Origin: Patescibacteria group bacterium
GTDB taxonomy: Bacteria > Patescibacteriota > Patescibacteriia > Patescibacteriales > JAQTRU01
Length of the DNA stretch: 64,000 nucleotides
Assembly: GCA_028716725.1 (NCBI GenBank)
Contig: JAQUPG010000008.1
Location: 3,653 to 67,652, forward strand
Direction of reading: 5' to 3'
Below, one piece after another: positions 3,736 through 62,647 of this stretch. The notes beneath the pieces were generated by a model. That model did not search any database. It worked only from the letters and a program-made list of their open reading frames with translations, and had not been told where the DNA came from. Positions within the stretch are counted from its first letter, which is position 1. Every line of letters starts with the position of its first letter. The translations under genes were made by a program, and so were the position numbers.

Positions 3736-4377
3736 TTACCCTCCCGTGAAAATATAAAGTAAGACAACTATAAATATTATGGTTAAAGTCCAGCCGATTT
3801 TTTTCTTATTATTTAAGAAACAGTAAACAATGCCGATTAAGTTTAAAGATAGGAATAAAATTAAAAGATTAAAGAATAAAAATATGCCTCCCCAAAAACT
3901 GGATAAATAATCTATGTAATCAGCGCATGGCCTCAAACCCTTAGGGCCTCCGCAGGCGGGGCCGTCTTTATAATTAGAAAAAGTATAAGCAAACAACAAA
4001 AAAGGAATGATTAAGCCCAGAAGGAATGCTTTTTTTGATTTTAAAAAGTTTTCTATTTTTTTATGGTTTTTAATAAATTCAAATATAAATCCAATGATGA
4101 AACCAATGACGAAAGCAAGGATTGAGCCGACGATAAAGAAAAGACCATAAGCTATCAGGCATTCGTTAAAGCTGCCGGTTGAGCCAACATAGTTCCGGCA
4201 TTCCCAGTTTTGGCGCGGGCCGATTATAACAGCAATAATAACACTGAATACCAACCATAATACTACGAATTTCACCCCGGTCTTTAAACAAAAAAATAAT
4301 TTTTCTCTCATAAGATTAAATTTAAAAATTTTTATTTTATACCATTCTATTGTAAAATAGTTTATTAAAAATATCAA
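3736..4377 (-). CDS. Hypothetical polytopic membrane protein
   Basis: 213 aa with several hydrophobic segments; no recognisable family. Confidence 0.45.
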   Translation of the reverse strand: MIFLINYFTIEWYKIKIFKFNLMREKLFFCLKTGVKFVVLWLVFSVIIAVIIGPRQNWECRNYVGSTGSFNECLIAYGLFFIVGSILAFVIGFIIGFIFEFIKNHKKIENFLKSKKAFLLGLIIPFLLFAYTFSNYKDGPACGGPKGLRPCADYIDYLSSFWGGIFLFFNLLILFLSLNLIGIVYCFLNNKKKIGWTLTIIFIVVLLYIFTGG

Positions 4378-4451
4378 GGCAGGGAAAGCTGTATTTGCTT
4401 TAAAATTGGCGATTTATTATAATTGAAGTACGTATTAAAATACGTACATAA

Positions 4452-4640
4452 ATGCATACTAAAAATATGGCCAGAAGGAGATTAAACCAAAAGGAAATAA
4501 GAAAAATTACTAAAAACGGGAATAGTTATTCGGTTTCTATCCCGATTGAGGTTCTAAAGGAGTTAAAATGGCGGGAGAAGCAGAAAGTTATTGTTAAAAA
4601 GAAGGGCAGAAATCTAATTATTAGCGATTGGAAAAAATAA
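4452..4640 (+). CDS. AbrB/MazE (SpoVT-AbrB fold) small DNA-binding protein
   Basis: 62 aa; ITKNGNSYSVSIPIEVLKELKW...KVIV swapped-hairpin-type motif. Confidence 0.5.
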   Translation: MHTKNMARRRLNQKEIRKITKNGNSYSVSIPIEVLKELKWREKQKVIVKKKGRNLIISDWKK

Positions 4641-6697: not shown

Positions 6698-6814
6698 TTA
6701 TCTTCTCTTCCTCTTCTTTGTCGCTTTCTTTCTTTTAGCGACCTTCTTCTTAGCCGGTTTTCTTTTCGCAACTTTTCTCTTCTTGGTTGCTTTCTTTCTT
6801 TTTTTCGCTGCCAT
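6698..6814 (-). CDS. Small (38 aa) extremely basic Lys/Arg/Ala-rich protein (histone-H1-like composition)
   Basis: GGGGG SD-like run 9 nt upstream of ATG; MAAKKRKKATKKRKVAKRKPAKKKVAKRKKATKKRKRR; below the ORF-track size cutoff. Confidence 0.45.
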   Translation of the reverse strand: MAAKKRKKATKKRKVAKRKPAKKKVAKRKKATKKRKRR

Positions 6815-7158
6815 TTTAATCACCCCCTTTCTTAAGCGCAGATTATTTTGCGCAGATAAATAAAATAATAAATTTTATTTTTTTATTCCTTCCCTTTATA
6901 TTATACAAAAATATTTTTTTCTTGGCAATGATCTCTTATAATTTTCTTTCATAAAATATTTTTTTATCTTTCAATTATATTATACAGGATATTTTTTAAA
7001 TTAACAATAGTTTTTTTGATAAAATAAAAAAATAAAATAAAAAAATAAAAAACTGTCTCCACATTTTTTATTTTTTTACCCGTTTTCATATTATTTTAAT
7101 CATCTTGCCTTGATAATTTTCTTATGCTATCTTATAGGCAGATTGGATAATATTTTTT

Positions 7159-14350: not shown

Positions 14351-14923
14351 TTATTCAATATTTTTTTCGCTAAATACCTGGGCCGTAAAGACTTTTAATT
14401 TAACATCCCCTGTCTTTTTATAGCAATCTGGATCTAGCCCGGCTTTTTGCGAGCACAATTGGCTTAAAAATTCTTCTAAATCCCAGCCAGTTTCCCTTGC
14501 TACCTGGGGTAAAAACACGCCGCCCTGCCTACCTTTTTCTACAATTACTCCCTCTTCGCCAAGTTTAATATTCTGCCAATTGTCAATTTCTTCAGGAACG
14601 GACAAGACGCTTATTTCATAATCCAATTTATCTAATTCATTTTCCGCCACGGGGTTAAACCTATAATCTTCGCTGGCTGCCGCTATAGCCATATCGCGCA
14701 CTACTTCCCAAAGAGGTTTGTCAGAAGGAATAATTTGGCCGATGCAGCCGCGCAACTGCCTGCCTTTATGCAAGGTGACAAAAGCGCCCTCCTGCTTTTT
14801 TAATCTTTCATCCTTAATATTAAACTCTGGAACCCTGCCTCCGCGCACATAATCTTCCACGGTTTGGCGGGCAATTTTTAGTAATTCTTTTTTCTGGTTT
14901 TTATTTAATAGTTCCGAGCTCAT
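14351..14923 (-). CDS. AMMECR1 domain protein
   Basis: GAFVTLHKGRQLRGCIGQI signature. Confidence 0.8.
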   Translation of the reverse strand: MSSELLNKNQKKELLKIARQTVEDYVRGGRVPEFNIKDERLKKQEGAFVTLHKGRQLRGCIGQIIPSDKPLWEVVRDMAIAAASEDYRFNPVAENELDKLDYEISVLSVPEEIDNWQNIKLGEEGVIVEKGRQGGVFLPQVARETGWDLEEFLSQLCSQKAGLDPDCYKKTGDVKLKVFTAQVFSEKNIE

Positions 14924-15792
14924 ATTTTCTTCAGAACTTTTAGGATTTGTTTATGGACCTTGCCATTGCTAGCGGCTATATATTTGCTTTTTAAATTCCA
15001 TTCCTTTCCGGAAAAATCAGTTACCTTTCCGCCGGCTTCCCGGACAAGTAAGACTCCGGCGGCCACGTCCCAGGAATTGGCTCCGGGGATAACGATTGTT
15101 TCTACCCTGCCGCAGGCGACATAAGCAAGCTCAATGGCGGCGCTGCCAAGCTGGCGGCAATCCAGGCCGCTTAATTTTTGTTTAGTATGATAAGCCAGGG
15201 CTTTTTTTATATCTTTTTCTCTGTGGCTGTGGCAGAAAGTATTTAAGACCTTGCCGGAGGAAATTTTTGAAACTTTAATTTTTTTGTTATTTAGATAAGC
15301 GCCTTTATTTTTTTCCGCCCAGTATAATTCGCCTAAGACCGGAATAAAAATTACGCCCAGGATAATTTTATCCTTATGGGCCAGGGCGATAGAAACTGAC
15401 CAAAGGGGGTTGTGCATAGAAAAATTAGTGGTCCCGTCCAAAGGATCAACAATCCAGAGATAATCGGTCCCGCACCTTTTAAAATATTCTGCTGATTTAT
15501 GGTAAGTTTTTTTATTTTGTCTAAAAGGTGTGGGATTTGTCTGCCCGGCTTCTTCGGATAATATCTGATGATCAGGGAAATATTTTTTTATGGCTCTGAT
15601 TATAATTTTTTCTGCCGTCAGATCCGCCTTAGTTAAAATTTCATGGCGGGACTTTAATTTTATCTTAGCCCGGTCAAAATTAGCATATTCGCGCAAAAGT
15701 ACTTTTCCGGCTTTTTTGGCGGCCTCAATAGCTACTTTTTTAAATTGGTTGTTCACCCCGTTAGAAGTTTTAAATAAATTGTTCTTTTTCAT
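14920..15792 (-). CDS. Inositol monophosphatase family protein (SuhB-like), with repeat-derived N-terminus and an internal repeat insert
   Basis: WIVDPLDGTTNF, ILSEE, WDVAAG motifs. Confidence 0.85.
   Translation of the reverse strand: MKKNNLFKTSNGVNNQFKKVAIEAAKKAGKVLLREYANFDRAKIKLKSRHEILTKADLTAEKIIIRAIKKYFPDHQILSEEAGQTNPTPFRQNKKTYHKSAEYFKRCGTDYLWIVDPLDGTTNFSMHNPLWSVSIALAHKDKIILGVIFIPVLGELYWAEKNKGAYLNNKKIKVSKISSGKVLNTFCHSHREKDIKKALAYHTKQKLSGLDCRQLGSAAIELAYVACGRVETIVIPGANSWDVAAGVLLVREAGGKVTDFSGKEWNLKSKYIAASNGKVHKQILKVLKKI
15468..15535. repeat. CCCGCACC-family palindromic element, in frame inside the IMPase-family CDS
   Basis: Arms TCCCGCACCTTTTA (15468-15481) / CTAAAAGGTGTGGGA (15521-15535), one G/A mismatch; encodes the PTPFRQNKKTYHKSAEYFKRCG insert. 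Confidence 0.7.
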
Positions 15793-15855
15793 AACTATTT
15801 TTAGTTATACTTATTTTCCCCTTAATAGAAGACGTTCTTTAAACTTCTAATGGGG
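15756..15855. repeat. CCCCGTTAGAA-family inverted-repeat element spanning the IMPase start codon
   Basis: CCCCGTTAGAAGTTT (15756-15770) / AAACTTCTAATGGGG (15841-15855); start codon at 15792 lies inside; encodes ...TSNGVN. Confidence 0.7.
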
Positions 15856-17508: not shown

Positions 17509-17528
17509 CCTGCCTGCCGGCAGGCAGG
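17509..17528. repeat. Perfect 20-nt GC-rich palindrome CCTGCCTGCCGGCAGGCAGG
   Basis: Intergenic, between two - strand genes; related copies at 13172, 41023, 41165 and 62628. Confidence 0.8.
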
Positions 17529-27597: not shown

Positions 27598-27635
27598 AAA
27601 CCCCGCCAACACGAAGTTGGCGGGATTTATTTTAC
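27598..27635 (+). terminator. Intrinsic terminator of purL
   Basis: CCCGCCAAC-ACGAA-GTTGGCGGG followed by a T-rich run. Confidence 0.65.
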
Positions 27636-27637
27636 CT

Positions 27638-27691
27638 AAAAAAAGAGGCTCGGTTAAACGTGATGATATTGCTATCACGTTTAACCGAGCC
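27638..27691 (-). terminator. Strong intrinsic terminator ending the small-ORF operon
   Basis: Perfect 18-bp stem 27647-27664 / 27674-27691; on the - strand followed by CTCTTTTTTT. Confidence 0.75.
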
Positions 27692-27696
27692 AAAAG

Positions 27697-27726
27697 CTAC
27701 CATTCGTCCCAGTCCCAACCGTACAT
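27697..27726 (-). CDS. 9-codon Trp-rich mini-ORF MYGWDWDEW (translation plausible, function unknown)
   Basis: GGAGGG 5 nt upstream; ATG overlaps the upstream stop (TAAGATG); the terminator follows directly. Confidence 0.25.
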   Translation of the reverse strand: MYGWDWDEW

Positions 27727-27727
27727 C

Positions 27728-27874
27728 TTAGCCCTCCGTCAATTCAGTTTTTTTCAATTCTATTCCCATTTCTGCCGCTACTGTTCTCAATACTTCCGCG
27801 CGGTTTTCTTTGTCTACTCCCGCCAGCGTCTTTTTTATCTGGGCAACTGCCAGATTTTTTTGAGAGTCGCTCAT
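27728..27874 (-). CDS. Hypothetical 48-aa protein
   Basis: AGGAGGAGGG SD; MSDSQKNLAVAQIKKTLAGVDKENRAEVLRTVAAEMGIELKKTELTEG. Confidence 0.4.
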   Translation of the reverse strand: MSDSQKNLAVAQIKKTLAGVDKENRAEVLRTVAAEMGIELKKTELTEG

Positions 27875-27919
27875 TTTCGTTTCCCTCCTCCTGCGGTTGG
27901 TGATATTTTTTTTCGATCT

Positions 27920-28099
27920 TCAGCTTGGCCAGACTTCTTTTGGCAGACTGACCCCCTTAAAACCCCGGAAGCCCGATTCGATAAAATTGGGCTTTGTTAG
28001 GTTGCCATTTCCCGCTGGAGAAAAAGCAGGTTCATCTCCTGCGAGCTCGACTTGTTTCTCGCCATTGCCGGTAAAGCCAGCCTCTGTCTCTTTAGCCAT
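27920..28099 (-). CDS. Hypothetical 59-aa protein (low complexity)
   Basis: GGGGGA SD; start at the internal Met of track ORF 27920..28141, 9 nt after the upstream stop. Confidence 0.4.
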   Translation of the reverse strand: MAKETEAGFTGNGEKQVELAGDEPAFSPAGNGNLTKPNFIESGFRGFKGVSLPKEVWPS

Positions 28100-28109
28100 T
28101 TCTTCCCCC

Positions 28110-28328
28110 TTACAGCAGAGTGTTAAAGATTTGCCGCGCACTTTTCATAAAGCAGCCGTTAATTCCTTGAGTTTCGAAGATAATAATAATTGAACAAATT
28201 CCCTGGAGCAGTTCCAGCCTTGGTTTTTTCTGAAGGCGTTCTAAGGTCTCTTGAAAAAAAACTTTATTGCCGCCAATAGCTGAATTAACGATGATTGAAG
28301 TGAGATCTTGAGTTGATTGATTGTTCAT
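28110..28328 (-). CDS. Hypothetical 72-aa protein
   Basis: GGAGGG SD; first gene of a four-cistron, tightly spaced - strand unit. Confidence 0.45.
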   Translation of the reverse strand: MNNQSTQDLTSIIVNSAIGGNKVFFQETLERLQKKPRLELLQGICSIIIIFETQGINGCFMKSARQIFNTLL

Positions 28329-28553
28329 TCTTCCCTCCGTTTATGTTTTTGTATTTTATAGTCTTTTAGAAAGAGCATATAAAAAAACTGGCTCCCCTTA
28401 CGAGGAGCCAGTTTTTCGTTTTCCCTAGTGAGTTTAACTTATCAAATAGTTAAAGCATCACAAAAAACTGATCTCCTCATGGAGCCATAGAACCAAAAAC
28501 CAAAGAAGAAATAAGTTTTTCGTAATGCCTTAATCATAAAAATATTGAATTTA

Positions 28554-28580
28554 CCCCGTTAGATAATATATTTAATGGGG
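28554..28580. repeat. CCCCGTTAGA-family short hairpin copy
   Basis: CCCCGTTAGATAATATATTTAATGGGG. Confidence 0.6.
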
Positions 28581-28737
28581 TTTTACTCTCTGTGGATAAT
28601 TATATCATAAATATGGGCAAAGTCAAACAAATTGTGGATTTTTTATATTTTTACATTAAAAAATAGCTAATATTAAATAAAAATTAAAAGGCAATTTGTT
28701 TTTAGCAAATTGCCTTTATTTCCCAAATTTTTGCATT

Positions 28738-29127
28738 TCAGGCCATTAAGTCCTGAAAGCAGTTAAGCATGGCCCGGGCGACGGCCATATGGGAATTGGT
28801 CGGGTGTTCGTCGTTCCTTTTGCATCTTCGGCTGTCTCCGTTTGAGCCGATCTGAATATGGGCATGAGCCTTGCACCCGCCCCTATAAGGCAGGTTTGCC
28901 CCGCAGGCAAGAAGCGTTATTTCCTGGTCACTGCCCAGATCGGGGGCGCAAGAAACAACCATTTCTTTTATCGCCCTAAATATGGCGTGGTGGATATTTT
29001 CCTGCCCCTGGCTGGCGCAAGAAATTTTTTCTTCACCCCTTGGGGTAGCGAAAACGAGAGTAGCGGTCGGAATCATTCCCGTCCCGTCAGATACCTGAAC
29101 GGTTTTTATGGCGAGATCAGCAATCAT
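28738..29127 (-). CDS. Stand-alone LeuA-dimer (allosteric R-region)-like domain protein
   Basis: 129 aa; two beta-alpha-beta-like halves (VSDGTG..ATLVFA..ASQGQENIHHAIFRAI / HAHIQIG..NSHMAVARAMLNCF) resembling the C-terminus of LeuA/CimA; assignment by eye. Confidence 0.4.
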   Translation of the reverse strand: MIADLAIKTVQVSDGTGMIPTATLVFATPRGEEKISCASQGQENIHHAIFRAIKEMVVSCAPDLGSDQEITLLACGANLPYRGGCKAHAHIQIGSNGDSRRCKRNDEHPTNSHMAVARAMLNCFQDLMA

Positions 29128-40826: not shown

Positions 40827-40922
40827 ATTTTTAAAATGATAAAATATTAAGTTATTATATTCTAATTATAAAATTATTATCGTTTTTAAGCAAGGGTATT
40901 TTAATTTTGAGAGTTTTAAGGT

Positions 40923-41047
40923 GTGGGCTTAAGAGGGCTCGAAGCTCCTCGGTGCCATCCTCGGTGCCGAAACGAGAAAACGGGGTTGACCTTCACGATG
41001 TCAATCCCAAGTACTCGGGACTCCCTGCCTGCCGGTAGGTAACCAAC
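40923..41047 (-). pseudogene. Decayed tRNA-Val-like copy interrupted by GC-rich inserts
   Basis: Keeps the TGGGCTTAAGAGGGCTCGAA, TGACCTTCACGATGTCAA and AACCAACT blocks of the adjacent tRNA-Val; 5' acceptor and D stem lost; contains CCTGCCTGCCGGTAGG. Confidence 0.45.
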
Positions 41048-41069
41048 TTTTAAGGTAATTAAAATTTTT

Positions 41070-41143
41070 GTGGGCTTAAGAGGGTTCGAACCTCTGACCT
41101 TCACGATGTCAACGTGACGCTCTAACCAACTGAGCTATAAGCC
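41070..41143 (-). tRNA. tRNA-Val (anticodon GAC)
   Basis: Hand-folded cloverleaf: acceptor GGGCTTA/TAAGCCC, D GCTC/GAGC, anticodon stem TCACG/CGTGA with loop TTGACAT, T stem AGAGG/CCTCT with TTCGAAC; CCA not encoded. Confidence 0.9.
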
Positions 41144-41151
41144 CATTCTGT

Positions 41152-41264
41152 AGTGCGCTTGGATGCCTGCCTGCCGGTAGGCAGGGACTCGAACCCGCCC
41201 GCCTTGCTTCGCAAGGCGAAGCGGGCGGGCCATCGACCCCCCGTTCACCCCGTTAAATTTTGCG
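41152..41264 (-). pseudogene. Decayed tRNA-Ile-like copy with two palindromic inserts in the T arm
   Basis: GTGCGCTTGGAT / ACTCGAACC / CCATCGACCCCC blocks match the adjacent tRNA-Ile; inserts CCTGCCTGCCGGTAGGCAGG (41165-41184) and CGCCCGCCTTGCTTCGCAAGGCGAAGCGGGCGGG. Confidence 0.45.
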
Positions 41265-41363
41265 CTTTATCGGTGCGCTTGGATGGACTTGAACCATCGA
41301 CCCCCGCTTTATAAGAGCGGTGCTCTAACCAACTGAGCTACAAGCGCAAAATAATTTAACGGG
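41247..41363. repeat. CCCCGTTAAATT / AATTTAACGGGG inverted repeats bracketing the tRNA-Ile gene
   Basis: Perfect 12-nt arms at 41247-41258 and 41352-41363. Confidence 0.65.
41273..41346 (-). tRNA. tRNA-Ile (anticodon UAU)
   Basis: Acceptor GCGCTTG/CAAGCGC, D GCTC/GAGC, anticodon stem CCGCT/AGCGG with loop CTTATAA, T stem GATGG/CCATC with TTCAAGT. Confidence 0.85.
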
Positions 41364-41366
41364 GCA

Positions 41367-41403
41367 AGTAAGAGCGGTGCTCTAACCAACTGAGCTACTG
41401 GTG
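41367..41403 (-). pseudogene. Orphan tRNA 5' half (acceptor GCACCAG, through the anticodon loop CTTAC..)
   Basis: GCACCAGTAGCTCAGTTGGTTAGAGCACCGCTCTTAC; no matching 3' half found in the window. Confidence 0.4.
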
Positions 41404-41533
41404 CTTGAAAATAAAAAAAGCTGTTTTTTCTACTATTAAAGAATTTAACATTATATTAATTTTCTGACAAGAAGGAAAGAAAAAAGGGCTGATTGGGATC
41501 AGCCCCTTTTTTTACGGTGCGATTCTTTGATTT

Positions 41534-41930: not shown

Positions 41931-43211
41931 TTAAAACGGGAGTTTTTTTAATTTTTCCTCTATGAGTCCAATGATTTCTTTTTCCGCGGCTCCTAACGGC
42001 TTATTGATTTCCGCCTGAGCCAGCCGCCGGTCGCCGGTCGGATTATATTCCCTGATTAATTCCATAGAGTCGATATTTTTTACCGAATAGACGAATAAAC
42101 TGGTGGTCGGATAATTAAATTTTTGGTTGTTTACCCCGTTAGAAATAATGCCCCGTTGATCTGCATCAGAATTAGATGCCTCATTGGAATTTCTAATGGG
42201 GCTTTCTCCATTCCCCGATATATCATTTTCCGGAACTCTTTCGTAGATAATGGCAATTATTTTTGCCAGGGGGATATTGACGATAAGCTCATCAATCACT
42301 TCGCTTAAATCATCTTCCTCCGCCTCGGTTTTTAAGAAATCAATATGGGAAAGAGTTGACCAGACCAGTTTATTGTCAAGGCTTCCGGTAAGCCGGGCCA
42401 GAACCCGCCCCCATAATTTTAAAACGTTTAAAGTCCGGGAGCGGTAAAGCATATTAACAATTTCTTCCCGGCGCGCGCCCATGGAAATAAGCTCGGAAGT
42501 GGCGTTTAAAGTGTGCGGGGTGATATTCGGAGTCTTAAAACTTCTGGTTTTGTAGATTATGCCGGTCAGCAAGCAAGTGGCAATATCCTCGTCAATTAAT
42601 TCCCGGGAATAGCTTTCGAACAAAGAGAATAAAATTTCGGAAACGGAAACCGCGTTTAACTCCGTAAGGTTTATCTGTCCGAATTCCTCGTTGTCGCTCT
42701 GGTGGTCAATATTTATAATCGGGGTTTTATAAAAGAATTCCGTGTCATTGTCGTAAATTTTTCCGAGAGATTCTAAATCCGGGGCGTCAAGGGTAATAAT
42801 CAAATCGTATTTAAACCCGCCGGTGGAAGAAGTTATGTCATCCTCGGTGAAAAAGCCTTCTTTCGGGGAGATGATAAAGTTTAAGCTGCTTTTTTCCAGC
42901 TTGTATTTTATCTGGCTGACCTTGGCGTTGGTGATGTCCAGGGAAATTATAAATTTGCGCAGATTTTCCAGCTCATTTTTTATTTCCGAAAAAGCCGGCA
43001 GAAAGGAAAAAAGCTTGCCGGCCGTCGGCGAGGAATTATTGGTTTTAGGTTTTTCCGCCACTATTTCCGCGTTTTTTCCTAATTTTTTTAAAAACAAAAA
43101 TAAGGCCAGGGCGCTGGCGACTGAATCTCCGTTCCAAACATGGGAGAAAGTTATTAAGATATTGTTAGCTTTTTTGATTTGTTCAAAAATTTGTTGCTCC
43201 TGAGTCAGCAT
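41931..43211 (-). CDS. DHH/DHHA1 phosphoesterase (NrnA-like) with a repeat-derived insert
   Basis: DGDSVASALAL, DHH-type IDHQ and DHHA1-type GGGH-like regions. Confidence 0.75.
   Translation of the reverse strand: MLTQEQQIFEQIKKANNILITFSHVWNGDSVASALALFLFLKKLGKNAEIVAEKPKTNNSSPTAGKLFSFLPAFSEIKNELENLRKFIISLDITNAKVSQIKYKLEKSSLNFIISPKEGFFTEDDITSSTGGFKYDLIITLDAPDLESLGKIYDNDTEFFYKTPIINIDHQSDNEEFGQINLTELNAVSVSEILFSLFESYSRELIDEDIATCLLTGIIYKTRSFKTPNITPHTLNATSELISMGARREEIVNMLYRSRTLNVLKLWGRVLARLTGSLDNKLVWSTLSHIDFLKTEAEEDDLSEVIDELIVNIPLAKIIAIIYERVPENDISGNGESPIRNSNEASNSDADQRGIISNGVNNQKFNYPTTSLFVYSVKNIDSMELIREYNPTGDRRLAQAEINKPLGAAEKEIIGLIEEKLKKLPF
42134..42201. repeat. CCCCGTTAGAAAT-family element in frame inside the DHH CDS
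   Basis: CCCCGTTAGAAAT (42134-42146) / ATTTCTAATGGGG (42189-42201); encodes PIRNSNEASNSDADQRGIISNG. Confidence 0.75.
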
Positions 43212-43462
43212 AACCTAAAGTTAAAAATTATTTTGTCAGTCTTTTAATATATATTAATTTATCTTTAGTGTCAAGTGTTTAATTCTGAGGGTTAGATAGC
43301 TTAAAAATCTTATTTTAATAATAACAAAAATTTCGTGTTTAAAAAATAAGAGATCCCTCGCTACGCTCGGGATGAGAGTGTTTCATAATTATTCAACACT
43401 CTCAATTTGTGTGGTTTTTTCTTGCCAAAATAAGCTAATTTTGGTAATCTTTAAGGTATGAA

Positions 43463-43561
43463 CCCCGTTAGAAATTCTATCGGTTAAAGGGTAAAGAAAT
43501 TTTTAACAGGGGAAAAGATTTACAAATATGAAGAAAGAAAACAAAAAGATTTCTAACGGGG
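43463..43561. repeat. CCCCGTTAGAAAT-family element containing the valS start codon
   Basis: CCCCGTTAGAAAT (43463-43475) / ATTTCTAACGGGG (43549-43561); the ATG at 43528 lies inside; encodes MKKENKKISNG. Confidence 0.75.
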
Positions 43562-46212
43562 TGAACAAAGATTTGCCAAAAGCGTACAATCCGCAGGATT
43601 ATGAGGATAAAATTTACGGGGAATGGGAAAAGTCAGGGTATTTCAACCCTGATATTTGTGTTCGCAAAGGAATCTGTGAGAAGAATGCCAAGCCATTTAC
43701 CATAATCTTTCCTCCGCCAAATATTACGGATAAGCTGCATTTAGGCCATGGTTCTAATTTAGCGATTGAAGATTTGCTGACACGTTATCACCGGATGAAA
43801 GGTTATCGGACTTTGTGGTTGCCCGGGACTGATCATGCGGCCATTGCTACGCAGAATGTAGTGGAGCGGAAAATCTTAAAAGAAGAGGGTAAGACGCGGC
43901 ATGATTTAGGTAGGGCCAAATTTTTAAAAAAAGTTTGGGATTTTGCAAAAGTTACGCAGGTGACAATCTTAAAGCAGTCTAGGAAAATGGGCGCCTCGCT
44001 GGATTGGTCAAGGCAGGCCTTTACCTTAGACGAGCCGAGAAAGAAAGCGGTGAGAAAAATGTTTGTTGAGATGTATAAAGAGGGAATAATTTACCGCGGG
44101 GAAAGAATCGTTAATTGGTGCCCGCGTTGCCATTCCACTTTAGCTGATGATGAAGTTAATTATAAGGAGCAAAAAGCGAAATTATATACTTTTAAATATA
44201 GCCGGGATTTTCCTTTTGCCATTGCCACCACCCGGCCGGAAACTAAATTAGGTGATACGGCCGTAGCGGTTAACCCGAAAGACAAGCGTTACAAAAAATA
44301 CATCGGGAAAATTTTTGCCATAGATTTTGTGGGTGTGCCTTTAAAATTAAAAATTATTGCGGATAGAAACGTTGATATGAAATTCGGGACCGGCGCTGTC
44401 GGCGTTACCCCGGCTCATTCCATGGTTGACTGGCAAATGGCCGAAGCCAATAGACTGCCAATCGTAAAAGTAATTAATGAGGAAGGGAAAATAAAAAATA
44501 ATTTTGGCAAATATTCAGGCAAAGGCGTTTTGGCCGCCAGAGAAATAATCGCGGAAGAATTAAAAAAACAAAAGTTATTGGAAAAGGAAGAAGAAATGGA
44601 TAATAATTTATCTATCTGCTACCGTTGCGGCACACCGATTGAACCTTTGCCGTCAAAGCAATGGTTCGTGTCCGTGGATAAAAAATTAAAGCGATTAGGC
44701 GATAAGTCGTTAAAGGAAAAAGCCATAGAAGTGGCTAAAACCGGAAAAATAAAATTTATCCCCGAAAGGTTTACGAAAAAATATTTAGACTGGATGGAAA
44801 ATTTACATGACTGGTGTATCAGCCGACAGATTTGGTTTGGGCATGAAATACCGGTTTGGTATAAGGATAAAGAAATTTATGTGGGCGAAGAAATCCCGAA
44901 AGGCAAAGGTTGGGTTCAGGATGAGGATACTTTAGATACCTGGTTTTCTTCTGGCATGTGGACTTTTTCAACTTTAGGCTGGCCTGATGATTTTAAAAAT
45001 AGAAAAAAGTCTGGCGATTTAACAAATTATCATCCCACCCAGGTTTTGGAAACCGGTTATGAAATTTTAACCCTTTGGGTTTCCCGAATGATAATGATGT
45101 CGGAGTTTGCTTTAGAGGAAATTCCTTTTGAGAAGGTATATTTACATGGCATGGTTTTAGACAAGCAGGGCAAAAAAATGAGCAAATCAAAGGGCAATGG
45201 AATTGACCCGATTGATGTTATAAATAAATACGGTACGGATGCGGTCCGTTTGTCTTTACTAATCGGAAATACGCCGGGTAATGACACCAGGGTTTTTGAA
45301 GAAAAAATCGCCGGGTTTAGGAATTTTACGAATAAACTTTGGAATATTTCCCGTTATATAATTACGAATTACGAATTGTCAATTACGAATTTAAAAATTG
45401 ATTATAAGAATTGTACTTTGGCCGATAACTGGATCTTGGAAGAGCTGGATGAGGTTAGATTTTTAGTGGATAAAAAAATAAATAGCTATGAATTTTCCGC
45501 GGCCGGAGAAATATTAAGAGATTTTACCTGGGATAAGTTTGCTGACTGGTATCTGGAGATTGCCAAAATTGAAGGCGATAAATCAAATATTCTGATTTAT
45601 GTTTTAAAGAATTTATTAATATTATGGCATCCATTCATGCCTTTTGTGACAGAAGCAATTTGGCAGGAAATGGGAAATTCGGAATTTTTAATGGTTGAAA
45701 AATGGTCTAAGGTAGGATCATCTATATCCGTAGGAGTTGATGTAAGAGATGGGGGAGGTGTATTAAGAAAGGACGAAATGAATTTGATAAAAGATATTAT
45801 TATTTCTATCCGCAACGCCCGGGCGGAAAATAAAGTTGAACCGGGCAAAAAAGTGAAAGCCATAATTTACGCTGGTCGTCTAAAAAATCTGGTTGAGTCG
45901 CAAGTGGATTTAATTAAAGGATTGCGGACTGGTATTAGCGAATTGGAAATTAAAGAAAATGGCCCGAAGATTAAAAATGAAATTTATTTAACCGTGGCCG
46001 GGGTGGAAATTTATTTAATCGGGGCAATCGACAGGGAAAAAGAAAAAGAAAGAATTAAAAAAGAAATAGCTAATCTCAAAAAAATGATTTCCCTGACCGA
46101 GAAGAAATTAGAGAATAAAGAGTTTACGGCTAAGGCGCCGGCTGAGATAGTTAAAAAGGAAGAGGAGAAATTAAAATCCTGGCAAGAAGCGCTCGAAAAA
46201 TTAAAAAAGTAA
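43528..46212 (+). CDS. valS: Valyl-tRNA synthetase
   Basis: PPPNITDKLHLGH (HIGH), KMSKSKGN, C-terminal coiled coil. Confidence 0.97.
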   Translation: MKKENKKISNGVNKDLPKAYNPQDYEDKIYGEWEKSGYFNPDICVRKGICEKNAKPFTIIFPPPNITDKLHLGHGSNLAIEDLLTRYHRMKGYRTLWLPGTDHAAIATQNVVERKILKEEGKTRHDLGRAKFLKKVWDFAKVTQVTILKQSRKMGASLDWSRQAFTLDEPRKKAVRKMFVEMYKEGIIYRGERIVNWCPRCHSTLADDEVNYKEQKAKLYTFKYSRDFPFAIATTRPETKLGDTAVAVNPKDKRYKKYIGKIFAIDFVGVPLKLKIIADRNVDMKFGTGAVGVTPAHSMVDWQMAEANRLPIVKVINEEGKIKNNFGKYSGKGVLAAREIIAEELKKQKLLEKEEEMDNNLSICYRCGTPIEPLPSKQWFVSVDKKLKRLGDKSLKEKAIEVAKTGKIKFIPERFTKKYLDWMENLHDWCISRQIWFGHEIPVWYKDKEIYVGEEIPKGKGWVQDEDTLDTWFSSGMWTFSTLGWPDDFKNRKKSGDLTNYHPTQVLETGYEILTLWVSRMIMMSEFALEEIPFEKVYLHGMVLDKQGKKMSKSKGNGIDPIDVINKYGTDAVRLSLLIGNTPGNDTRVFEEKIAGFRNFTNKLWNISRYIITNYELSITNLKIDYKNCTLADNWILEELDEVRFLVDKKINSYEFSAAGEILRDFTWDKFADWYLEIAKIEGDKSNILIYVLKNLLILWHPFMPFVTEAIWQEMGNSEFLMVEKWSKVGSSISVGVDVRDGGGVLRKDEMNLIKDIIISIRNARAENKVEPGKKVKAIIYAGRLKNLVESQVDLIKGLRTGISELEIKENGPKIKNEIYLTVAGVEIYLIGAIDREKEKERIKKEIANLKKMISLTEKKLENKEFTAKAPAEIVKKEEEKLKSWQEALEKLKK

Positions 46213-59756: not shown

Positions 59757-59794
59757 CCCCGTTAGAAATTTTAATTTTTAAATTTCTAATGGGG
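59757..59794. repeat. CCCCGTTAGAAATTT / AAATTTCTAATGGGG hairpin copy just upstream of dprA
   Basis: 15-nt arms, 8-nt loop. Confidence 0.75.
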
Positions 59795-59829: not shown

Positions 59830-60190
59830 TCAAAACTCCTCGCCCCGTTAGAGAAATTTTTTAACGGGGCAAAGGTAAGAAATAGACGATTCTGCCCTAG
59901 TTATTTTAAAATCAAAGAGTCGTGGGCTAGAAGTTGGTCATTTTCCGCTGAGGCACAATACTTTTAATAATAGAAAAGCCGATAACGAATAGGGTAATTT
60001 CTCTAACGGGGTAAACCAATGGCCCTCAATTTACTACTTGCTTCTGGGCGTTAGTTTGTAGATTGCTTTCCTCCTTGGTGATTTATAAATTAATTTGTCC
60101 CTTATCAGCAAGTAGTAAATCGGAGGCGATTGGGAAAAACCGGCTATCAAGATTTGTTTTTTTAAATTAAATTACTGATAGCTTTTTTAA
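59830..60190 (+). ncRNA. Possible non-coding transcript(s) in the 0.6 kb dprA-tRNA spacer; very tentative
   Basis: TTGACT-N17-TAATAT at about 59795-59823; helix ATTTACTACTTGCT/AGCAAGTAGTAAAT (about 60040-60120); GCTATCA...TGATAGC + T6 at about 60144-60188; no ORF. Confidence 0.2.
59843..60011. repeat. 169-nt element with perfect 16-nt terminal inverted repeats CCCCGTTAGAGAAATT / AATTTCTCTAACGGGG
   Basis: Arms at 59843-59858 and 59996-60011. Confidence 0.75.
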
Positions 60191-62627: not shown

Positions 62628-62647
62628 CCTGTCTGCCGACAGGCAGG
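62628..62647. repeat. CCTGTCTGCCGACAGGCAGG palindrome (variant of the CCTGCC family)
   Basis: Intergenic, just upstream of the der start. Confidence 0.7.

Follow-up and report, generated by a model that had tools for sequence, protein, structure and literature searches.

How does the start codon of a valyl-tRNA synthetase (ValRS) gene come to lie inside an inverted repeat? The question is posed by valS in the DNA analysed here, a 64,000-nucleotide stretch (hereafter the window) of contig JAQUPG010000008.1 of a Patescibacteria group bacterium (assembly GCA_028716725.1, positions 3,653 to 67,652 of the forward strand). A first-pass annotation, made from the sequence alone, had reported that two inverted arms, at window positions 43463-43475 and 43549-43561, enclose 99 nt containing the valS ATG (43528) and codons 1-11, and these coordinates proved exact. 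From the analyses described below, we consider this 99-nt segment to be quite probably a copy of a non-autonomous, cut-and-paste-type element resembling MITEs (miniature inverted-repeat transposable elements), with a start module that is read into the host gene.

The site was dissected on the + strand. The element is inserted in a TGAA target within the gene's own ATGAAC, so that the ancestral valS start codon (43458-43460) stands directly to its left and the TGAA at 43459-43462 is the left-hand one of two copies of a 4-bp target-site duplication. This TGAA is followed by the left terminal inverted repeat CCCCGTTAGAAAT (43463-43475; recognised by arm search, folding and comparison with relatives), by an inner degenerate copy of the right arm, AAATTTTTAACAGGGG (43497-43512), which forms a nested short hairpin with the left arm in the same layout as in the alignment of its subfamily (see below), and by the start module, an ATG plus 10 codons (MKKENKKISNG; 43528-43560) reading into valS. 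The right terminal inverted repeat ATTTCTAACGGGG (43549-43561), found by arm search, supplies the codons I-S-N-G. Its last G and the right TGAA copy (43562-43565) together make a junction GTG (43561-43563; junction feature, 43561-43565). The open reading frame (ORF) of valS from the element ATG spans 43528-46212 and encodes 894 aa; this ATG is in frame, 11 codons upstream of the old start position, and the junction GTG is in frame at the ancestral start position itself. The old ATG now heads a 9-codon dead-end ORF (ATG AAC CCC GTT AGA AAT TCT ATC GGT TAA). The displaced ATG of valS, the 4-bp flanking repeats and the junction GTGs had not been described in the first-pass annotation.

The ancestral start could be placed at 43458-43460 because TGAA flanks the element on either side and because an orthologous locus, L008, has an empty site that reads taaggtATGAAGAAAGACTTGCC, with no arm within its 14.5 kb. 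Three other relatives (L002, L005 and L007) showed the same synteny of valS and the neighbouring DHH gene as the window, and carried an element at the identical valS site (...ggtATGAA-CCCCGTTAGAAAT ... ATG plus 10 codons ... ATTTCTAA(C/T)GGGG-TGAA..., hyphens marking the element borders). Their left arms CCCCGTTAGAAAT were identical, and the interiors of these elements (127-159 nt) had diverged. At the protein level, nearly all of 120 ValRS homologues (those with an organism name being from Patescibacteria) start 3 or 4 residues ahead of the conserved LPKAY (MKKELPKAY...). The extension M..KN..ISNGV was present only in P0001 and P0002 (82% and 89% identity), P0012 (75%) and P0104 (64%), and was missing from P0003-P0011 and P0013 (75-79%). 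The empty valS start of L008 (~1795-1825) also contains a 9-nt tandem duplication, AGGTATGAA-AGGTATGAA, and two in-frame ATGs (MKGMKKDLPK); this duplication could be an excision footprint or the result of unrelated slippage.

The first-pass annotation had also stated that the same arms enclose 100 nt at the start of an inositol monophosphatase (IMPase)-family gene (14920-15792, - strand), and this was borne out to the nucleotide. The element (15756-15855, - strand) covers the 5' end of the gene, with its gene-distal arm at 15843-15855 and its gene-proximal arm at 15756-15768, and holds the new ATG (15792-15790) and 12 codons. As in valS, a junction GTG is formed (15756-15754), the target is duplicated (TGAG, 15859-15856; TGAA, 15755-15752; flanks ATGAG on the left and TGAAC on the right), and the old ATG is left outside the element (15860-15858). 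The upstream metallophosphoesterase gene terminates at the TGA of that old ATGA, so that the insertion broke a start/stop overlap. IMPase homologues are mostly of ~257 aa and start with M(D/N)NxIKKxA (e.g., MNNEIKNIA...). The SNGV extension was found in P0121 (identical to the window protein), P0124 and P0127, with an ISNGL variant in P0173, and was lacking in P0122, P0123, P0125 and P0126, which are 72-81% identical in the alignment. The insertion is filled in the window and in L142 and empty in L195 (P0125; same genome as L007), where the start reads gctATGAATAACGAA and is clean. Alignment of the orthologues, which had been proposed as a check, thus gave the same picture for ValRS and IMPase: most start at the conserved core, only some close relatives are extended, and the extension was always accompanied by the nucleotide palindrome. 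Apart from its start, the IMPase has at residues ~86-109 an extra stretch of ~20 residues, NPTPFRQNKKTYHKSAEYFKRCGT, common only to P0122 and P0123 and missing from the other orthologues.

To what kind of sequence do these arms belong? In the window, the motif CCCCRTTAGAA (at most one mismatch) occurred 12 times against 3.35 expected, and 0 of 100 shuffles attained a count of 12. With a strict hairpin pattern, CCCCRTTAGAA-N(0-30)-TTCTAAYGGGG, matches came from 5 IMG/VR contigs and from GTDB species genomes, the latter with at least 120 stretches, against ~4 by chance (our own estimate for 596 Gb at uniform base composition). The statistics that follow come from 120 non-redundant copies from GTDB species genomes, among the matches listed. 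The element ends (CCCCGTTAGAA ... TTCTAACGGGG) are terminal inverted repeats of 13 bp, made up of 11 conserved nucleotides (CCCCGTTAGAA) and two positions (12-13) that are variable yet complementary, and the stem reached at least 13 bp in 82 of the 120 copies. Perfect 4-nt direct repeats flanked 62/120 copies versus 2/121 in an offset control, and the reconstructed target was (G/A)-YWWR-(C/T), its first position never being A or G and its fourth never C or T. The window pairs are TGAA/TGAA (valS), TGAG/TGAA (IMPase) and TTTA/TTTT (a hairpin at 28554). The modal element has 29 nt, a 13-bp stem with a 3-nt loop. Over the family as a whole, sizes ranged over 24-303 nt, with the arms spaced from 0 to ~280 nt apart.

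Carriers were assigned to Patescibacteria, Omnitrophota, Nitrospirota/Thermodesulfovibrionia, Planctomycetota, Desulfobacterota, Gammaproteobacteria, Elusimicrobia and one Aenigmatarchaeota metagenome-assembled genome (MAG), with the reservation that all records are MAGs and some may have been misassigned by binning errors. The loci had GC contents of 0.30-0.60, and the genes beside the hairpins were ordinary housekeeping genes. Subfamilies sharing one interior recurred at different loci and in different genomes, and insertions were polymorphic among relatives, with both filled and empty sites for valS, IMPase and DHH. Related contigs, overlapping ones included, contained ~242 arms in 565 kb. 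No real match was obtained in annotated plasmid and phage collections. The hairpins in IMG/VR "viral" contigs lie in DNA of ~50% GC, with 4-5 exact arms per locus (L009, 2297-2354 and 5697-5725; L013, 3245-3324, 3455-3464 and 3962-3990); these contigs might belong to phages that infect carrier hosts, have been misclassified, or act as vectors by which the family spreads.

A third window copy lies inside a gene. The reported 68-nt element at 42134-42201 in the DHH/DHHA1 phosphoesterase gene (41931-43211; both on the - strand) was confirmed, as was its in-frame translation as PIRNSNEASNSDADQRGIISNG. The insert is filled in the window, in L002 (short) and in L007 (decayed), and missing in L005; a gene identical to the window copy is present on GCA_028713775.1. 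It had also been stated that one arm translates as SNGV in three proteins. All three window genes do read the arm as S-N-G, because only one frame of TTCTAACGGGGTGAAC is stop-free, but only these three residues are arm-encoded, the V being the junction codon. Mapping on a homologous structure, likewise proposed at first pass, placed the DHH insert just past residue 327, where the alignment with TM1595 (5o1u), a homologue of solved structure, stops; from general knowledge of DHHA1 domains, this suggests a loop between two strands. This placement rests on the HMMER alignment, since a single-sequence AlphaFold model of the protein (mean pLDDT 40.9) was too poor to confirm the location of the insert. 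Such a copy would be tolerated where the element plus its target-site duplication is a multiple of three, the frame is stop-free and the loop is variable. The wider sample contained further in-frame cases: 22 of the 120 hairpins lay within long stop-free frames, and 21 of these 22 had a frame-preserving length with the 4-nt duplication included (29 + 4 = 33), the peptides added being PVRNxISNGV or PLExFLTG. Eight of ten hosts checked against Pfam fit well-known families (SMC, CDC48-like AAA ATPase, ArsA, carbamoyl-phosphate synthase, IF-2, MiaB-like radical-SAM enzyme, DNA polymerase I and UvrD).

Could the inverted repeat instead be a conserved cis-regulatory hairpin of a regulon (an operator, a translational leader or a 5' stabilising stem) that does not move at all? 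Such a function would fit the strict conservation of the arms, non-coding left arm included, in four valS lineages though the interior diverged, the complementary variation at arm positions 12-13 within a stem of the length given above, and the folding z-scores of all arm pairs (-2.8 to -4.7); REP2 of Neisseria, moreover, is a repeat that doubles as a regulon element (PMC3184786). We nevertheless regard a purely regulatory hairpin as very unlikely, given the target-site duplications and empty sites, an arm spacing that varies from 0 to ~280 nt, copies within the coding sequences of SMC, IF-2, DNA polymerase I, carbamoyl-phosphate synthase and UvrD, copies beside unrelated genes in many phyla, and a search of the window with Rfam (gathering thresholds) that returned three tRNAs and nothing else, hence no match for the element. 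A secondary regulatory effect of inserted copies is possible. Filled sites were 33-160 nt longer than empty ones, and this added DNA also bears on another explanation, in which the hairpins are repetitive extragenic palindromic (REP) or REPIN elements spread by a REP-associated tyrosine transposase (RAYT; Y1 HUH), or pairs of inverted motifs resembling DNA uptake sequences. Uptake sequences arise by point mutation and add no DNA, and were rejected for the added DNA and duplicated targets of the filled sites. The copies are indeed short, numerous and often intergenic palindromes, and the genome encodes dprA and recA; yet they have no GTAG, a clear 4-bp duplication and no RAYT gene nearby, and we find this origin hardly credible. 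Two further candidates were dropped: an IS91-type insertion, suggested by TGAAC/CAAG flanks that turned out to be variable 4-nt direct repeats, and an integron attC site, whose core-site order is reversed here.

The mobile hairpin family thus favoured includes a subfamily of 80-300 nt, to which the valS and IMPase copies belong and whose right end is the start module: an ATG, ~7 A-rich codons and the right arm read as I-S-N-G. Because the leader of IMPase P0124, MSEKNNKISNGVN, nearly matches those of ValRS P0012 and P0104, metagenome contigs were scanned for this module with the pattern ATG + NNN RAR RAR AAY NNN RAR + ATTTCTAAYGGGG, i.e., ATGNNNRARRARAAYNNNRARATTTCTAAYGGGG. Sixty stretches were obtained versus <1 expected by chance (own calculation), and in all 60 the ATG opened an ORF through the arm into a protein, 59 of them 61-1014 aa long and one cut by the contig end after 20 codons. 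As a control, at least 60 codons were opened by 24% of all ATGs and by 29% of A-rich ATGs at the same loci. After removal of the leader, the proteins formed 29 clusters; when 20 representatives were run against Pfam, all but one received a name (19 named): MetRS, ProRS, phosphoglucose isomerase, three glycosyltransferases, a LamG protein, a type IV pilin, an NAD epimerase, a nucleotidyltransferase, serine hydroxymethyltransferase (SHMT), WecG-NUDIX, LytR, UPF0102, an HtrA-like protease, acetyl-CoA synthetase, PfkB, TsaE and thioredoxin reductase (TrxR). The gene families besides these 19 include ValRS and IMPase. Several of the Pfam domains begin at residue 13-18.

The insertion site of the subfamily is the start of the host gene, A-TGAA-N, with a left flank that is mostly ATGAA (where the left arm is detectable), sometimes decayed to ATAAA, and a right flank TGAAN. 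Its consensus of ~105 nt consists of the left arm, the degenerate inner right arm, an AT-rich stretch, which often has TAGTAT at -12 to -7 of the ATG (not so in the window valS copy), and the module. Longer elements from other phyla, taken as an unbiased sample, were mostly intergenic with ordinary TTTA/TAAA targets, so that the start-codon habit is a trait of the subfamily and not of the whole family. In a WecG-family gene (L159, L161, L170, L174 and L193) the left target copy reads ATAAA and the right one TGAAT; the displaced old ATG had turned into ATA, which fits the expectation for a start no longer used. Tandem start modules, MGEKNKKISNGVEKKNKKISNGVN, were seen on a UPF0102/YraN gene (L146, 3615-3648; L157, 2879-2912), the second element being inserted in the ATGGAG of the first with duplication of TGGA.

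Five results weigh against reading the valS segment as a transposed element with a start module of its own. Firstly, no transposase and no full-length element with these ends was found in the ~1.6 Mb of searchable sequence, whether by all-against-all clustering of 911 neighbouring ORFs, by Pfam analysis of the largest clusters, among the neighbours of lone arms or in ten window ORFs; arm pairs 150-5000 nt apart enclosed no transposase, and none of those 400-5000 nt apart had matching flanks. The mobilising enzyme would have to act in trans, and would presumably be a DDE transposase making 4-nt staggered cuts. Secondly, the interior of the window valS element was no closer to the valS copies of L002, L005 and L007 than to copies at other genes, so that interior identity does not decide between one ancestral insertion and repeated hits at valS. 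Thirdly, the scan pattern requires an intact ATG and stop-free A-rich codons, and therefore favours copies kept by selection and misses decayed intergenic ones. Fourthly, a scan for sigma-70-like consensus promoters found none inside either window element. Finally, with an in-frame GTG at both window junctions, the element ATG is not strictly required there.

This last point bears on the first-pass claim that the element supplies the start and N-terminus of valS and IMPase. The lineage-limited extension upholds it, with the caveat that each of the two junctions also forms an in-frame GTG where the ancestral start lay, so that initiation at the element ATG in the window is likely, not proven. 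The element may be mobile and sit in the start codon, and still the junction GTG could be the working start, with the element as a 5' untranslated leader and its ATG incidental. Of 31 gene groups (the 29 clusters, MetRS being kept separate from ValRS), 22 have a GTG junction, as do both window genes; this GTG falls exactly at the start of the orthologues and restores the ancestral N-terminus. Besides, the frame relation between ATG and GTG is built into the element and is by itself no proof of ATG use. Against this stand the other 9 of the 31 groups, in which the junction of one or more members reads GTA, GTT, GCA or GCG (e.g., GTA in valS of L005, GTT in TrxR of L155) and the ATG frame is kept. 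In TrxR of L155, position 1 of the Pfam profile aligns to residue 13, and from the element ATG to the domain there is no further ATG, GTG or TTG. In members whose junction codon differs from GTG, the sequences leave the element ATG as the sole plausible start, and it appears to be the working one there. In the window, no other complete gene starts with GTG, the sole further GTG start of an ORF being at the left window edge, and the fold predicted for the valS copy leaves the ATG unpaired and puts the GTG at the base of the 13-bp stem. We consequently think GTG initiation unlikely and regard the ATG as the likely working start of both window genes.

Signals around the start were also inspected. 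Window genes mostly lack a Shine-Dalgarno sequence and have an AT-rich upstream region followed by ATGAAA, and the element ATGs are alike; no Shine-Dalgarno sequence was found in the window elements. The TAGTAT of many subfamily copies is only suggestive of a promoter. Counting leader substitutions by codon position yielded too small a number, one also skewed by the search pattern. An upstream promoter candidate, TTGCCA-17-TAATCT, failed the criteria of the promoter scan.

How, then, might a gene survive an insertion in its start codon? After insertion, the old ATG stays on the left and runs into stop codons, and on the right the last G of the element and the duplicated TG make GTG at the old start, with the element ATG in frame 11-12 codons upstream. 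With the start restored by the element itself, start codons of essential genes could be occupied in a genome with almost no spare intergenic space, and ValRS and IMPase would be translated from the element ATG with a leader, MKK.N..(I/T)SNG, that would have no function of its own. We advance tentatively, as an idea that could well hold, that the subfamily is a self-contained start-codon replacement cassette, for which the ATGAA or ATGGA starts of essential genes are safe landing sites in the ultra-compact Patescibacteria. If so, dozens of unrelated proteins would share an element-encoded N-terminus and 5' leader and might be co-regulated, and the minimal unit of 24-29 nt, which occurs in several bacterial phyla and in an archaeal MAG, would rank with the smallest transposable units on record.

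In structure, the family shows what is expected of MITEs: terminal inverted repeats, a target-site duplication of fixed length, small size, dispersal and presence/absence among relatives, except that a parent insertion sequence with the same ends had no match within ~1.6 Mb. Like MITEs in general and the Correia elements of Neisseria in particular, it combines terminal repeats and target duplication with the lack of a transposase gene, many copies near gene starts and a potential effect on neighbouring expression. Correia elements are 100-155 bp long, have 26-bp repeats, duplicate TA and provide promoters and IHF sites from upstream positions (PMC10969869); in contrast, the hairpin family duplicates 4 bp and goes down to 24-29 nt, and its start-module subfamily replaces the start codon. 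Inside genes, its behaviour recalls the Rickettsia palindromic elements (RPEs), which are of ~100-150 bp and confined to Rickettsia (Ogata et al. 2000, cited after PMC10969869). Both are palindromic selfish DNA present in frame in unrelated, often essential genes, to which a conserved peptide is added, and the RPE-like in-frame survival suggested at first pass was confirmed by the DHH copy and the 22 intragenic hairpins described above. This likeness is confined to behaviour. The hairpin family differs in its 29-nt unit, its 13-bp terminal repeats with 4-bp target duplication, its occurrence in many phyla against a single genus, and a subfamily specialised for start codons with an ATG of its own.

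The first-pass annotation knew of no repeat-derived translation starts in this kind of genome; as a general statement this does not hold, because REP2 (CREN) of Neisseria and the inverted repeats (IR) of Borrelia plasmids carry a promoter, ribosome-binding site and ATG (Delihas 2011, PMC3184786), where repeats that lengthen the 5' ends of genes are described as well. REP2 and the Borrelia repeats share with the start-module subfamily the position of ATG-carrying repeats directly upstream of varied ORFs and the resulting common 5' end. According to that review, which describes no target duplication for it, REP2 lacks terminal inverted repeats (PMC3184786), whereas the hairpin element has terminal inverted repeats, shows no detected promoter or Shine-Dalgarno sequence in its window copies, and lands within the former start codon, its match to the reading frame built in. 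A review of MITEs in prokaryotes, published in 2024, covers in-frame fusions (RPE, ERIC, BOX) and MITE-borne promoters and never mentions start codons (PMC10969869). In our literature search, the arm sequence, the leader peptide and a link between MITEs and the candidate phyla radiation (CPR) were unreported. REPs are extragenic, have a 5' GTAG, make no target duplication and are associated with RAYTs. The hairpin family resembles REPs and REPINs in its very small (21-65 nt) hairpins and in doublets that form longer ones, and differs from them in having no GTAG, a 4-bp duplication, some intragenic copies and no RAYT-like neighbour found. The element is therefore a MITE by structure save for a known parent insertion sequence, RPE-like inside genes and REP2-like at gene starts; as far as we have checked, insertion in a start codon with a built-in in-frame ATG, a unit of 24-29 nt and spread across phyla have not been described.

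These results have several consequences. Element ATGs are already called as starts in databases, as in the 290-aa NCBI entry for IMPase P0121, so that unrelated CPR proteins have a spurious "motif" in common at the N-terminus, with effects on alignments, on the prediction of signal peptides and on models of start sites. In evolutionary terms, insertion in a start codon with in-frame replacement would be a case of a selfish element curbing its own damage, and the short relatives, which add exactly 33 nt (29 + 4) in genes, extend the RPE phenomenon from one genus to several phyla. In the biology of CPR bacteria, a common 5' leader could couple the expression of aminoacyl-tRNA synthetases, SHMT, TrxR, pilin and cell-envelope enzymes. 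After identification of the enzyme, 13-bp transposon ends active in Patescibacteria would aid the genetics of a group that is hard to manipulate.

The window contains further family members not included in the first-pass annotation, namely three short hairpins and a lone arm. Two hairpins are intergenic, one of 38 nt (59757-59794) located 15 nt upstream of the dprA ATG (59742, - strand) and one of 27 nt (59843-59869); the third (28554-28580), of 27 nt, is degenerate and has the flanks TTTA/TTTT. It lies in a region of ~1.1 kb (27600-28740) with only short overlapping ORFs, none of them convincing. The lone right arm, TCTCTAACGGGG-TAAAC (60001-60011, + strand), is directly followed by a 27-nt inverted repeat (60016-60133; 85% complementary, 64 nt apart), upstream of tRNA-Ser (60378), and has neither an ORF nor an Rfam match. 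Four of the six window hairpins (15756-15855, 28554-28580, 42134-42201 and 59757-59794) have as their sole arm mismatch a left G opposite a right T on the + strand, which would pair as G-U only in + strand RNA or single-stranded DNA, irrespective of gene orientation. GC skew is positive in all but 3 of the sixteen 4-kb bins of the window.

Two other repeats were observed. Inverted repeats resembling the arms enclose the tRNA-Ile(TAT) gene (41272-41347), with CCCCGTTAAATTTTGCGC beginning at 41248 and GCGCAAAATAATTTAACGGGG running up to 41364, and on either side of this gene, within 40900-41410, there are tRNA halves or fragments and GC-rich hairpin inserts. The layout is kept in two relatives (L002, ~4368-4483; L007, ~6794-6910) and may represent an element that carries a tRNA gene or disrupts one. 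Another, unrelated family of perfect palindromes, CCTGCCTGCCGGCAGGCAGG, is present at 17509-17528, 41166-41185 and 62628-62647, with a partial copy at 41024-41043; these 4 sites gave 7 strand matches, where chance would give 0.

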